NCBI GenBank assembly: GCA_964453665.1
Contig: CAYVQT010000004.1
Span: 4,142 to 68,141, forward strand
Source of the DNA: an uncultured Dehalococcoidia bacterium
GTDB taxonomy: Bacteria > Chloroflexota > Dehalococcoidia > SZUA-161
DNA length: 64,000 nucleotides
Reading direction: 5' to 3'
A program made the translations under genes and the position numbers. Below, one piece after another: positions 59,723-63,743 of the stretch (the first letter of the stretch is position 1; the number at the start of each line of letters is the position of its first letter). Under the pieces are notes generated by a model. It had not been told where the DNA came from. It saw nothing but the letters and a program-made list of their open reading frames with translations, and did no database searches.

Positions 59723-60529
59723 CTAATTTTCATGCTCAACAGAAGTCTGTTGAACCTCGTCAGGTTCGAAAACGGCCTCATAGTGAGCTGGCAACTCCAT
59801 CTCTTCCTCTTCTTCCACCTCTTCCTTCTCGGCCAGAGCCTCAATAGCTTGCCTGCTTTCCAAAATAGCGTCAGCGATAACACTACAGAAAAGAGCTACA
59901 GCCCTGATCGCATCGTCATTTCCCGGAATGGGATAGTCAATTTCATCAGGGTCACAATTCGTATCTACAATAGCAACAATGGGAACGCCGACTCGCTTGG
60001 CCTCAGCAATAGCATTCCTTTCCTTGGTAGGATCGACTATAAATAATGCTCCTGGAATCCTCTCCATCTCCTTAACACCACCAAGCAACCTGTTTAGATG
60101 CGCTATCTCCTTTTCCAACTTCATTGCTTCCTTCTTGGGCAATCGTTCCAATTCTCCCCTGACTTTACGATCCTCCAAACGAACTAAGTAATCAATACGT
60201 GACTGAATAGTCGTGAAATTCGTTAGCATTCCCCCAAGCCATCGTTGATTTACGTAAAAGACCCCGCACCGCTTTGCCTCTTTTTCTAAAGCTTCTTGCG
60301 CTTGCTTCTTGCTACCAACGAAAATAATATCTTCGCCCCTCTCGATCACTTCTTTCAGGAATTCACAAGCTTTGCCAAGTAAGACAACAGTTTGCTCTAA
60401 ATCAATTATGTGAATGCCATTACGCTGGCTAAATATATAAGGCTTCATCTTGGGATTCCAGCGTGCTACTTGATGCCCGAAGTGAACCCCAGCCTCTAAA
60501 AGCAATTTCATCGAAACAGGTTCTGCCAT
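59723..60529 (-). CDS. rpsB: 30S ribosomal protein S2 with an acidic C-terminal extension
   Basis: [19 protein letters not shown] start, [12 protein letters not shown], then [12 protein letters not shown]. Confidence 0.97.
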
Positions 60530-60627
60530 CTTCTAAAGACCCTAACCCTCTCCAGTCTACCCAGCCTGCCTCAGTATTATGCAGACCAGCAATAATTTAC
60601 CAATTACCAAAATTGGCCGACTGGATG

Positions 60628-60656
60628 AGTTTACCATAGGCAGATACAAAAGGCAA
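60628..60656 (-). promoter_or_regulatory. Putative sigma-70 promoter of rpsB-tsf
   Basis: Minus strand: TTGCCT, 17-nt spacer, TAAACT, about 100 nt upstream of the rpsB ATG. Confidence 0.4.
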
Positions 60657-60670
60657 GAGTGAGCACACAC

Positions 60671-60700
60671 TTGACAAATACCAGTCCAAGGTGCTAAATT
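60671..60700 (+). promoter_or_regulatory. Putative sigma-70 promoter preceding the CIRCE element
   Basis: TTGACA, 18-nt spacer ending in TGC, then TAAATT. CIRCE begins 8 nt downstream of the -10 hexamer. Confidence 0.6.
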
Positions 60701-60708
60701 ACGTTTGG

Positions 60709-60735
60709 TTAGCACTCGATTACATAGAGTGCTAA
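60709..60735 (+). promoter_or_regulatory. CIRCE operator (HrcA binding site), perfect consensus
   Basis: TTAGCACTC-gattacata-GAGTGCTAA equals the canonical TTAGCACTC-N9-GAGTGCTAA inverted repeat with zero mismatches. Confidence 0.9.
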
Positions 60736-60793
60736 TATTGGGCGGTAAAGACAGCGGCTACTATCATGAGCCGTTTATTGTGTGAGGTGCAAA

Positions 60794-61120
60794 TTGCCTA
60801 TTTACGAATATGAATGTAGTGCTTGCGGTATCAGGTTTGACAGGAGGCAGAAGTTCGATGAAGAACCCACAGCTATCTGTCCCGAGTGCGCAAGCAAGGC
60901 GCGTCGCGTCATTCACTCCGTGCCTGTTCTTTTCAAGGGGAGCGGATTCTATTGTACTGATCACGGCAGAGGTACGAGATACAACGCCGGCCAGAAAAAA
61001 GAAGAGGCAGAGATAAAAGAAGAGACTAAAGCTGAGACTAAAGCTGAGACTAAATCAGAGGTCAAGCCTGACAACAAGTCCGAAACTAAAAAAGAGACTA
61101 CAGCCGGGAAAAGTAGTTGA
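60794..61120 (+). CDS. FmdB-family zinc-ribbon protein with a K/E/T-rich disordered tail
   Basis: TTG start after GAGGTG gives (M)PIYEYECSACGIRFD ... CPECAS ... GSGFYCTDH, the FmdB/CxxC_CxxC_SSSS pattern. The tail is KKEEAEIKEETKAETKAETKSEVKPDNKSETKKE. Confidence 0.85.
   Translation: MPIYEYECSACGIRFDRRQKFDEEPTAICPECASKARRVIHSVPVLFKGSGFYCTDHGRGTRYNAGQKKEEAEIKEETKAETKAETKSEVKPDNKSETKKETTAGKSS
61022..61057 (+). repeat. Three tandem 12-nt units (GAGACTAAAGCT x2, GAGACTAAATCA)
   Basis: Direct reading of the sequence. Encodes ETKA-ETKA-ETKS within the FmdB-like tail. Confidence 0.9.
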
Positions 61121-61578
61121 GGGCTCTTATCCAACGAGTCTCTCAAGCGTCGGTCAGTATCGAAGGGCAGAGCGTCGCTGCCATTAAACAAGGCTTTGTA
61201 ATTTTTATTGGTGTAGGTAAAGGTGACTCAGAAGACGACGCGCGCTATCTAACAGAGAAGATATCTAACCTGCGTGTTTTCGCTGACGATTCAGGAAAAT
61301 TCAACCTCTCCATACTGGATATCGCTGGTGAGGCATTGGTAGTCAGCCAGTTCACTCTTTTTGCCAGCACCCGCAAAGGACGCCGCCCCGGTTTTACTGA
61401 CGCTGCCCCGCCCGAGGTTGCCGAGCCTCTCGTAAACACATTCGTTCAACTCGTTCGCGCTACCGGTCTAAGGGTTGAGACAGGTCGCTTCCAACAATAT
61501 ATGCAGGTCGAGATTCATAATGACGGACCGGTCACTATTTTCATAGATAGCTCGGAACGTCTGAAACCAAGGCATTAG
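61117..61578 (+). CDS. dtd: D-aminoacyl-tRNA deacylase
   Basis: MRALIQRV start, SQFTL and NDGPVT motifs. TTG start overlaps the upstream stop. Confidence 0.94.
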   Translation: MRALIQRVSQASVSIEGQSVAAIKQGFVIFIGVGKGDSEDDARYLTEKISNLRVFADDSGKFNLSILDIAGEALVVSQFTLFASTRKGRRPGFTDAAPPEVAEPLVNTFVQLVRATGLRVETGRFQQYMQVEIHNDGPVTIFIDSSERLKPRH

Positions 61579-61594
61579 TTGCAAACCTCTTTCT

Positions 61595-62395
61595 CTACTT
61601 ACCACGGTTATCTACAGTGCTCGCTCTGAATCTTGCTGCACGATTTGCAATCAAGGCCGCTATGGCTCCCGCCGGTATCCCACCATCTATATTTACCACC
61701 GCCAATCCCAGAGAACAGGACTGCAACATGGCCATCAGAGCGCCGACTCCCTTTCCGCCTAACCCGTATCCATAAGAAGTTGGGACCGCTATCAAGGGAA
61801 CATCCACCATACCAGCCAGCAAGGTGGGTAGTGCCCCCTCCCTTCCAGCCACCACAATAATCACATCTATGTCCGCTGTCATCATCTCACTTAGAGCAGG
61901 AAACAGCCTGTGGATGCCTGCTGCCCCTACGTCATAGGCAGTTGTTACCTCGCACCCCATCTCCGACGCCATCACCTTGGCCTCTTCAGCGATTGGAATA
62001 TCAGAAGTTCCAGCAGTGATAATCCCTACTCTCCCTCCTGTAGCACTCGGCGAGAAATCCCTGCTCTTTATCACTACTGTTCCACCGGGCCAGCTCTTGT
62101 GAATAAATTCACCCCCGGTTATTACCGTCTTAATAGCCCTGATATGTTTCTCACTACCCCGGCTTATTATCACCCGCCCCTTTTTAGCAAGCACCTTCGA
62201 GGCTATTTTAGCTACATCCGACGGTATCTTCCCTTCCGCAATAACCACCTCCGGTATGCCATGTCTTATCTCTCTTCCTATGTCCAGCCTCGCTAATTCT
62301 CCCACTTCCTCCACAGTCAGCATCTTAAGAGCCCTCTCAGCCTCATCAAGCGATATATCGCCTCTCGCCAGCCTCTCCAGCACCTCTCTTAACAA
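61595..62395 (-). CDS. larB: Nickel-pincer cofactor biosynthesis protein LarB (PurE-like NaAD carboxylase/hydrolase)
   Basis: N-terminal helical region, then a PurE-like domain (IITAGTSDIPIAEEA ... VVAGREGALPTLLAGMVDVPLIAVPTS). Confidence 0.85.
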   Translation of the reverse strand: MLREVLERLARGDISLDEAERALKMLTVEEVGELARLDIGREIRHGIPEVVIAEGKIPSDVAKIASKVLAKKGRVIISRGSEKHIRAIKTVITGGEFIHKSWPGGTVVIKSRDFSPSATGGRVGIITAGTSDIPIAEEAKVMASEMGCEVTTAYDVGAAGIHRLFPALSEMMTADIDVIIVVAGREGALPTLLAGMVDVPLIAVPTSYGYGLGGKGVGALMAMLQSCSLGLAVVNIDGGIPAGAIAALIANRAARFRASTVDNRGK

Positions 62396-62483
62396 AGGAT
62401 TCCTCCCTCTACACGCAAATACATAGCATATAATATATACAAGTAGTATACTAGGCTAAATTCGTTAATAAAAGAGGGGCCAA

Positions 62484-63743
62484 ATGCCGACCGATTCCAA
62501 ACGCATCCTGATTGTCGACCCACAGATAGCAGGGGTATCAGGGGACATGATGGTTGCCGCCCTGCTTGATCTCGGCGCAGACCATACGAAGGTAATAGAT
62601 GCTATGAAAACCCCCGGGCACATCTTACGAGGATGCAACGACCTTGAGATAACAGTAAAGGACACCGTCAGGCAGGATATTAGAGCCAAGCAAATCGACG
62701 TCAGAATTGACGAGGATGCTATCCACAGAACAGCCGCCGAGCTTCTGGACGCGGCGTCCTCATGCCTTCAAAGGCTGAAGCTTTCAGAAAACGCCAAGGA
62801 GTTCGCTTTAAATTCTATCAACACGCTTGTATCTGCCGAGGCGGTAATTCATAGCCAAAATATCCAGGAGGTTGTCCTTCACGAAACCGCATCAGCAGAT
62901 ACCCTGGCTGATGTACTCGGCACCGCCACAGCTCTGGACGATCTAGGGCTTCTCACTGATACTTCCATCTACTCAACCCCCATCGCGCTCGGCGGCGCTC
63001 TCTTTCAGTCCTCACATGGCACAATTTCATCGCCCGCACCGGCCACTCTGGAGATATTGCGCTCTAAAAGCTTCCTCACAATCGGTGGCCCGTCCGAAGC
63101 CGAGCTGGCAACTCCCACCGGGGTCTCGCTCCTCACCAATCTGGCATCAGAATCCGTCAGATTCTACCCGCCGATGATTCCAACACGCATCGGCTACGGT
63201 GCCGGAGCAAAAGAATTAGCTGAGATGCCAAACGTTCTCAGGGTTGTTCTTGGAGAACCGTCCGATTTCGGGCTATTAAAAGATGAGGTATACGTGATTG
63301 AGACGAACCTCGATGACGTCACCGGGGAATTGATCGGTCATGTCATGCAGAAGCTGCTTCAGGAAGGCGTCAAGGATGTAACAGCAATCCCCACATTGAC
63401 CAAGAAAGGCAGGCCCGGACACCTCATCGAAATAATCGTAGACAGGCCTATCCTGGAGAGCGTATGCAGAGTCTTGATAGAGGAGACAGGAACACTGGGC
63501 GTAAGAATTCATAGCTGTGAGAGGCGTGTCCTCGCCAGACATTCTATCCCTATCGAGGTAACCGTTGGAGACGTGAAAAGGGTCATCAGGGTCAAAGTGG
63601 CTAAAAGCAGTGGCGGCCAGGTCGTTCAAATAAAACCGGAATACGATGATGTTAAAAGCCTTGCTGATGAAACAGGCAAGCCTCTGAGGGAAATCGAGGA
63701 ATCCATAAAAAGAAAAGCCGGGGAAGCTTTAGACCAATACTGA
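62484..63743 (+). CDS. larC: Nickel insertion protein LarC (DUF111)
   Basis: ILIVDPQIAGVSGDMMVAALLDLGAD N-terminus typical of LarC. 419 aa. Confidence 0.88.
   Translation: MPTDSKRILIVDPQIAGVSGDMMVAALLDLGADHTKVIDAMKTPGHILRGCNDLEITVKDTVRQDIRAKQIDVRIDEDAIHRTAAELLDAASSCLQRLKLSENAKEFALNSINTLVSAEAVIHSQNIQEVVLHETASADTLADVLGTATALDDLGLLTDTSIYSTPIALGGALFQSSHGTISSPAPATLEILRSKSFLTIGGPSEAELATPTGVSLLTNLASESVRFYPPMIPTRIGYGAGAKELAEMPNVLRVVLGEPSDFGLLKDEVYVIETNLDDVTGELIGHVMQKLLQEGVKDVTAIPTLTKKGRPGHLIEIIVDRPILESVCRVLIEETGTLGVRIHSCERRVLARHSIPIEVTVGDVKRVIRVKVAKSSGGQVVQIKPEYDDVKSLADETGKPLREIEESIKRKAGEALDQY

Follow-up and report, generated by a model that had tools for sequence, protein, structure and literature searches.

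Among the zinc-ribbon proteins described so far, the closest counterpart of the one discussed here is Ruc (Rv0991c) of Mycobacterium tuberculosis, in which an N-terminal zinc ribbon of the form CxxC-N17-CxxC is followed by a disordered, hydrophilic C-terminal half; the protein binds one zinc, becomes a holdase on oxidation, needs its tail and passes its clients to DnaK/DnaJ/GrpE, and its gene, which is strongly heat-induced, belongs to a set of just four that HrcA represses directly in that organism (Becker et al., mBio 2020; PMC7448276). A functional analogue of Ruc is Hsp33 (HslO), present in Proteobacteria and Firmicutes, which carries four zinc-binding cysteines, is activated by oxidation and delivers clients to DnaK; homologues of Ruc were found in 22 of 22 surveyed Chloroflexi genomes, often beside chaperone genes, and in this phylum Ruc is dominant and Hsp33 rare or absent (PMC7448276). 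The present analysis concerns a stretch of 64,000 nucleotides (nt), hereafter the window, from an uncultured Dehalococcoidia bacterium (GenBank assembly GCA_964453665.1, contig CAYVQT010000004.1, positions 4,142 to 68,141), in which a ruc homologue and dtd, the gene for D-aminoacyl-tRNA deacylase, lie behind a perfect CIRCE (controlling inverted repeat of chaperone expression) element, the predicted binding site of HrcA. The pair is most probably a two-gene stress operon under HrcA repression, from whose bicistronic mRNA a holdase-type Ruc and Dtd would be made together; the ruc-dtd feature is real and under selection, and its core belongs to the known HrcA-ruc theme, the likely recruitment of dtd, the all-or-none distribution of the operator and a hairpin in the leader being apparently new.

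The operator reads TTAGCACTC-GATTACATA-GAGTGCTAA and occupies positions 60709-60735 (no strand assigned), its arms, in the arrangement TTAGCACTC-N9-GAGTGCTAA, being conserved and free of mismatches; the motif scan of the 64-kb window returned no other CIRCE match at up to three mismatches (0.02 expected), and the next-best site has five. Ahead of it, on the plus strand, lie a -35 hexamer TTGACA (60671-60676), contained in a CTTGACA that is invariant in an alignment of 11 clade sequences (A1), and an extended -10 element TGcTAAATT (60692-60700, with TG at 60692-60693 and TAAATT at 60695-60700), the promoter scan giving 10 of 12 matches; the pattern AAG.TG.TA.ATTA is nearly invariant in the same alignment. 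The spacer between the -35 and -10 hexamers measures 18 nt, and the gap between the -10 hexamer and CIRCE only 8 nt (60701-60708), so that the transcription start, inferred at about 60707 from spacing relative to a promoter recognised by its match to the consensus, would be overlapped by the operator. The ruc start codon follows 58 nt past CIRCE, behind a Shine-Dalgarno region GTGAGGTG (60782-60789, plus strand), of which G.GGT is invariant in A1.

The same operator stands ahead of a chaperone operon on the same contig. The 3' part of groEL fills positions 1-1382 of the window (plus strand), and the groES-groEL operon begins upstream of the window, where a second perfect CIRCE, TTAGCACTC-TCCACTAGA-GAGTGCTAA (L081, 7933-7959), is placed 46 nt before the groES start and some 650 nt upstream of the window's first base; the organism thus uses the operator at its canonical target. 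With the source contig read beyond both ends of the window, by 8.5-10 kb on the upstream and by 10 kb on the downstream side (about 84 kb in all), the sites at groES and ruc were the only two at up to four mismatches. Contigs nearly identical to the source (ENA ERZ27256770, k141_143065) occur in samples of the Joint Genome Institute (3300017987, Ga0180431_10000105) and of Logan, and the closest genome relatives are metagenome-assembled genomes (MAGs) of uncultured Dehalococcoidia or Chloroflexota.

The first gene behind the operator (60794-61120, plus strand) encodes 108 residues from a TTG start, with cysteines at C8, C11, C29 and C32 and a K/E/T-rich tail; by profile matches and alignment, the protein is a Ruc homologue of the Ruc/FmdB zinc-ribbon family. 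The TTG at 60794 is the best start (MPIYEYEC...) and is backed by the alignment of orthologues as well as by one public gene call of 108 residues (L085). The protein matches PF09723 (Zn_ribbon_8) with an E-value of 2.7e-15 and 56.5 bits (cut-off 34.4) and TIGR02605 ('FmdB family zinc ribbon protein') with 66.1 bits (cut-off 31.3), the latter profile giving 58.4 bits with residues 1-49 of M. tuberculosis Ruc; the alignment with these residues, which were rebuilt, with five of them missing, from primer sequences printed in PMC7448276, is gapless and shows 37% identity (49 residues), with the four cysteines in register and a pairwise E-value of 6e-13. The zinc ribbon, again CxxC-N17-CxxC, takes up the N-terminal 50 residues or so, and the tail (residues 58-108; 51-59 residues) is 94% polar or small, with the composition K11 E10 T7 and three hydrophobic residues; the tails of homologues are not alignable. 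A sequence search of the PDB with the protein gave no meaningful match.

The sequence-only reading of this DNA had described a perfect CIRCE, 8 nt behind a TTGACA-N18-TAAATT promoter, which precedes a 108-residue CxxC...CxxC zinc-ribbon gene with a K/E/T-rich tail overlapping dtd; all of this was borne out by the motif scan, the profiles and the open reading frames, the added TG turning the promoter into one with an extended -10 element. The same reading had assigned the zinc ribbon to a family of unknown function and had taken CIRCE regulons to be normally confined to operons of the groESL/dnaK type; this framing finds no support, a homologue, Ruc/Rv0991c, having been characterised in 2020, and M. 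tuberculosis ruc being a published exception of exactly that kind (PMC7448276). Since the zinc-ribbon protein is a Ruc homologue, HrcA repression of its gene would follow a published paradigm and would be no anomaly.

It is conceivable, and in our estimate unlikely, that the zinc-ribbon protein works not as a chaperone but as a regulator which binds nucleic acids or proteins and which may modulate HrcA, the ribosome or Dtd, so that HrcA control of its gene would represent feedback or translation control. The name 'FmdB regulatory protein' and the many functions served by the zinc-ribbon fold (PMC7448276) would suit such a role, as would the position of the gene between translation genes (rpsB-tsf on one side, dtd on the other) and the conservation of the dtd link across Chloroflexota; a comparable case is offered by Chlamydia, where a small lineage-specific heat-induced protein is reported to feed back on HrcA (PMC12154930). 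On the other hand, the sole biochemically characterised member of the family, Ruc, is a holdase that needs its disordered tail, the window protein shares this two-part architecture, and the literature search found no evidence of DNA or RNA binding for the family. A chaperone of the holdase type is the reading retained in what follows.

Some further features of the gene may be recorded here. Part of the tail is encoded by a 12-nt tandem repeat found by the repeat scan (61022-61054, plus strand; 2.8 copies, 100% match), which gives rise to ETKA repeats; both length and sequence of the tail vary widely among orthologues, which suggests a repeat-driven evolution of this part of the protein. A fifth cysteine, Cys54 (60953-60955), lies just past the zinc ribbon in the motif GSGFYCTDHG, recurs in many members of the clade and is a serine in others; it could matter for redox activation. 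In one MAG of the clade (CAWHAI01; L183, 5377-5772) the Ruc-type open reading frame is frameshifted after about residue 28, with CIRCE and dtd intact, as a result of an assembly error or because the gene is a pseudogene.

The second gene, dtd (61117-61578, plus strand), encodes 153 residues from a TTG start which overlaps the ruc stop by 4 nt (TTGA), an arrangement indicating translational coupling to ruc. Its product matches PF02580 with an E-value of 2e-55 and 187 bits and the TIGR00256 equivalog with 172 bits (cut-off 101.5), and the motifs SQFT and NDGPVT are both present, at residues 77 and 135 respectively. The SQFT and NxGPxT motifs matter for the catalytic activity of Dtd, an enzyme which strips D-amino acids, and some other mischarged species, from tRNA.

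The breadth of the CIRCE-ruc arrangement was surveyed in one genome per species (185,579 species) by a scan for a perfect CIRCE which has, 40-70 nt downstream of it, a start encoding M-P-x-[YF]-x-[YF]-x-C. Of the 115 loci obtained, 109 encode genuine Ruc-type proteins, a lower bound given the perfect operator and the fixed distance range that were required. Most of these genomes belong to Chloroflexota (Dehalococcoidia, Tepidiformales, Anaerolineae, Thermoflexus and Chloroflexia), including Tepidiforma flava YIM 72310, a cultured organism with a complete genome sequence; Actinomycetota (such as Arthrobacter, Glycomyces, Acidimicrobiia and Nanopelagicales) account for many others, and a few lie in other phyla. 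The gene dtd follows CIRCE-ruc in 62 of the 88 assessable genomes, immediately in 35 and at a distance of 1.2-1.5 kb on the same strand in 27; the 26 in which no dtd lies behind CIRCE-ruc are mostly Actinomycetota. In Tepidiforma flava (NZ_CP115149.1, near 2.474 Mb; L194, 571-2629, minus strand) two tandem TetR-family genes stand between CIRCE-ruc and dtd, and in genomes of this type the order ruc-tetR-tetR-dtd is kept, with all the genes on the same strand and with stops and starts that overlap; an insertion thus leaves the ruc...dtd linkage in place. In an Armatimonadia MAG (L056, 3884-3910) a perfect CIRCE is flanked on one side by a divergent NIF3-like gene, which starts at a distance of 19 nt, and on the other by the promoter of a Ruc-type gene; as a case of CIRCE-ruc this locus was set aside, its target being ambiguous and dtd being absent.

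As to the literature, dtd is not mentioned in the Ruc paper (PMC7448276), and the search found no paper placing dtd in an HrcA or heat-shock regulon, one temperature omics study of Streptococcus agalactiae that names both HrcA and D-aminoacyl-tRNA deacylase being left aside; nor did it find a paper joining FmdB with HrcA, or CIRCE and HrcA with 'zinc ribbon'. The position of dtd behind CIRCE-ruc, the all-or-none occurrence of the operator between sublineages and the leader hairpin of the clade (see below for both) appear unreported.

The window's clade is represented by 25 distinct loci, taken from genomes of species and from metagenomes. All of them keep the module CTTGACA-N17/18-TGcTAAATTA-N7-G-TTAGCACTC-N9-GAGTGCTAA, with 9-nt spacers and flanks that differ from one another; despite this divergence CIRCE is perfect or carries a single mismatch at every orthologous locus, and eight of its ten stem pairs never vary. 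To judge from this conservation, the operator is under selection, and the combination of sequence-invariant arms with drifting spacers fits a site bound by a protein better than a simple stem in the RNA. It may nonetheless be asked if the palindrome acts mainly as an RNA stem-loop at the 5' end of the message, serving mRNA stability or processing, perhaps together with the hairpin further downstream. The element lies just past the inferred start, would thus be transcribed and would fold as a 10-bp stem, a second conserved hairpin follows in the leader, and in Bacillus subtilis an effect of CIRCE on mRNA stability has reportedly been seen; yet the arms are invariant at those eight pairs, whereas the leader hairpin covaries, and the contig's groES, like hrcA-grpE-dnaK in other Chloroflexota, is preceded by the identical 18 bases. 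A role mainly in RNA is accordingly given a low probability; RNA and operator functions are not mutually exclusive.

The occurrence of the operator follows sublineages. In the metagenome sample, all 8 loci with a Dtd that shares 68% identity or more with that of the window have a CIRCE with no more than one mismatch, and none of the 43 loci below this value has one, the best site there showing at least six mismatches; this bimodal distribution (0-1 or at least 6) indicates that the operator is all-or-none between sublineages and does not decay gradually. In Dehalococcoidales-type genomes (L004, L005, L007, L011, L020) the ruc-dtd loci carry plain promoters, often beside a tRNA gene, and no CIRCE. 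A MAG labelled uncultured Dehalococcoides sp. (L463) keeps CIRCE-hrcA, so that the loss of the operator at ruc-dtd is not simply a loss of HrcA. A variant operator, TTAGCAGTC-N9-GGCTGCTAA, is found upstream of ruc-dtd in a Dehalococcoidia MAG (L012, 3950-3976); its C-to-G change is mirrored in both arms and could reflect either a co-evolved HrcA specificity or RNA pairing.

Upstream of ruc lies the divergent rpsB-tsf-pyrH-frr cluster, and larB/larC lie downstream of dtd; the divergent intergenic region measures 264 nt, between the rpsB start at 60529 and the ruc start at 60794. Regulation by CIRCE of rpsB-tsf-pyrH-frr, or of both directions, rather than of ruc-dtd might be envisaged from the palindromic nature of the element, from its location inside this region and from the rpsB synteny that is kept in the clade, but it is very improbable: the minus strand has a single promoter-like site (60603-60576), and CIRCE lies some 105 nt upstream of it, where a repressor would be badly placed, whereas the plus-strand -10 element is immediately followed by CIRCE. 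Moreover, CIRCE travels with ruc and not with rpsB; L006, L012 and about 90 other genomes have other upstream genes, and most of the 109 genomes have CIRCE-ruc with no rpsB beside it. Finally, the idea of a chance match or a decaying relic, for which the many related ruc-dtd loci without CIRCE might speak, is effectively refuted by conservation, with about 0.02 sites expected per window at up to three mismatches, zero or one mismatch at every clade locus and a bimodal pattern, the reverse of what gradual decay would leave.

Between CIRCE and the Shine-Dalgarno region, fold and covariation reveal a terminator- or attenuator-like leader hairpin (AGCGGCT..AGCCGTT; 60753-60775, plus strand), followed by a T-rich tract (60774-60783). 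The consensus of the clade is GGCG.CCTC-loop-GAGG.CGCC and then a T-run, often with an A-tract ahead, and stem and U-run are clear in most members, as in GGCGACCTC-N6-GAGGCGC-TTTTT. Over the 25 clade sequences the hairpin has seven pairs, with 88% of the cells paired and six of the seven pairs changed on both sides; in an alignment that was fitted to the hairpin model, its covariation is 0.164 against a shuffle mean of 0.128, a value reached by 1 of 500 shuffles and exceeding the slid controls too. Neither the groES leader nor the other CIRCE-ruc lineages have the hairpin, and a permissive Rfam scan of 60500-61200 returned nothing relevant. From its form it looks like an intrinsic terminator or attenuator. 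A model in which the 5' arm (ACCUCAC) masks the Shine-Dalgarno sequence was not adopted, the complementarity being present in several relatives and not in the window.

Taken together, the elements suggest the following course of events. A strong sigma-70-type promoter, TTGACA-18-TGcTAAATT, would start transcription at about 60707, with the start overlapped by CIRCE. In the HrcA/GroEL titration model, GroESL keeps HrcA active until unfolded proteins titrate GroEL. Applied to this locus, the model predicts that in the absence of stress GroESL-activated HrcA sits on CIRCE and blocks the promoter, and that under stress unfolded proteins titrate GroEL, HrcA is released and the ruc-dtd mRNA is made. 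The Ruc-type protein is most likely an ATP-independent holdase, by homology to its M. tuberculosis counterpart, and on the model developed there oxidation would lead to the release of zinc, to activation and to the transfer of clients to DnaK/DnaJ/GrpE; the operon would then pair the prevention of faulty protein synthesis, through Dtd, with the capture of unfolded proteins, through Ruc. The conserved hairpin and T-run between CIRCE and the ribosome-binding site may set or attenuate the output. A more ambitious proposal, that Dtd proofreading in Chloroflexota is a genuine HrcA-controlled heat-shock arm coupled to the Ruc holdase, with the clade hairpin as an additional attenuator or thermosensor layer, is tentative and rather doubtful; in such a coupling Ruc might, for instance, shield Dtd or the translation machinery, or act as a partner to either, when heat or oxidants stress the cell. 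As for the sequence-only reading, its proposed check, conservation of CIRCE ahead of the zinc-ribbon gene in relatives, came out positive at 25 of 25 clade loci, and its suggestion that HrcA may act through CIRCE on both ruc and dtd gains support from the conserved operator-promoter module and from the same operator at groES; the part concerning dtd seems to be the new one.

Several observations weigh against an HrcA-controlled holdase operon and temper its probability. Many related ruc-dtd loci have ordinary promoters and no CIRCE, and the gene pair itself is conserved across many Chloroflexota; HrcA control is thus not essential to the pair. The hrcA gene was not found in the approximately 84 kb read of the 146-kb source contig. 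The mycobacterial Ruc is the sole member with a shown function, and its zinc ribbon is 37% identical to that of the window protein, the two tails being unrelated; a single-sequence AlphaFold2 model of the window protein reached a predicted local distance difference test (pLDDT) score of 51 and is uninformative, the lack of secondary structure past residue 37 coming with a confidence too low to count. With respect to the leader, the window's own hairpin has a 5-bp GC core, a tail TTTATTGTGT and a weak T-run and was not flagged by the terminator scan, and no conserved alternative fold that could act as an antiterminator was found in the clade leaders.

The distribution of hrcA was followed with a Chloroflexus HrcA probe, verified by PF01628 (142 bits). 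A tblastn search with this probe against the sequences around the ruc loci gave no match near any ruc locus. Genome-wide pattern scans combined with this probe confirmed, among the matches listed, CIRCE-hrcA-grpE-dnaK operons in many Dehalococcoidia, and none of the CIRCE-hrcA matches listed came from the window's own clade; at least three Chloroflexota assemblies (CALLPC01, DAOUCS01, CAZYLL01) carry both CIRCE-hrcA-grpE-dnaK and CIRCE-ruc...dtd.

On the downstream side, the lar genes for the nickel-pincer cofactor, including larC, extend over 61595-63743, and a larE-like gene lies just beyond the window (L084, 11265-12098). The stop of the convergent larB is 16 nt from the end of dtd (61578-61597), with no terminator-like hairpin between the two, and larB transcripts could read antisense into dtd-ruc.

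The link between HrcA and Ruc, experimentally documented only in M. tuberculosis, is extended here, as far as genome sequences can tell, to Chloroflexota, Actinomycetota and a small number of further phyla, with a minimum of 109 species genomes. This breadth supports a view of Ruc-type zinc ribbons as core proteostasis factors in lineages without Hsp33, and the position of dtd offers a testable idea, namely that throughout a phylum a translation-fidelity enzyme may have become part of the class I heat-shock regulon; Tepidiforma flava YIM 72310, being cultured and fully sequenced, is suited to testing the control of ruc and dtd. For annotation, genes for an 'FmdB family zinc ribbon protein' that lie behind CIRCE can reasonably be called Ruc-like chaperones.

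Like M. tuberculosis Ruc, the window protein has its cysteines at C8, C11, C29 and C32, a hydrophilic tail that is predicted to be unstructured, membership in TIGR02605 and a gene placed directly behind an HrcA operator, in the window a predicted one, and thereby assigned to the chaperonin regulon. In contrast to the M. tuberculosis gene, which is controlled by HrcA and SigH, the window gene has a canonical, perfect CIRCE behind a sigma-70-type promoter and no sign of an overlapping promoter of the SigH type; it is, moreover, predicted to be co-transcribed with dtd, encodes a K/E/T-rich repetitive tail and has a leader hairpin with a T-run, and its host is an uncultured Dehalococcoidia bacterium. 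Hsp33, unlike Ruc, is a two-domain protein of about 30 kDa that has no sequence or fold relationship with it and that is not known to be HrcA-controlled in model organisms. With the canonical groES-groEL and hrcA-grpE-dnaK(-dnaJ) operons the locus shares the 9-N9-9 inverted repeat as well as its placement between promoter and start codon, whereas the genes that follow encode a holdase-type zinc ribbon and a tRNA proofreading enzyme in place of ATP-dependent chaperones. Housekeeping dtd genes are known from E. coli and from B. subtilis, where dtd lies downstream of relA; the window enzyme belongs to the same family (TIGR00256, with SQFT and NxGPxT), but its gene, and likewise the dtd of 62 Chloroflexota genomes, lies behind CIRCE-ruc.

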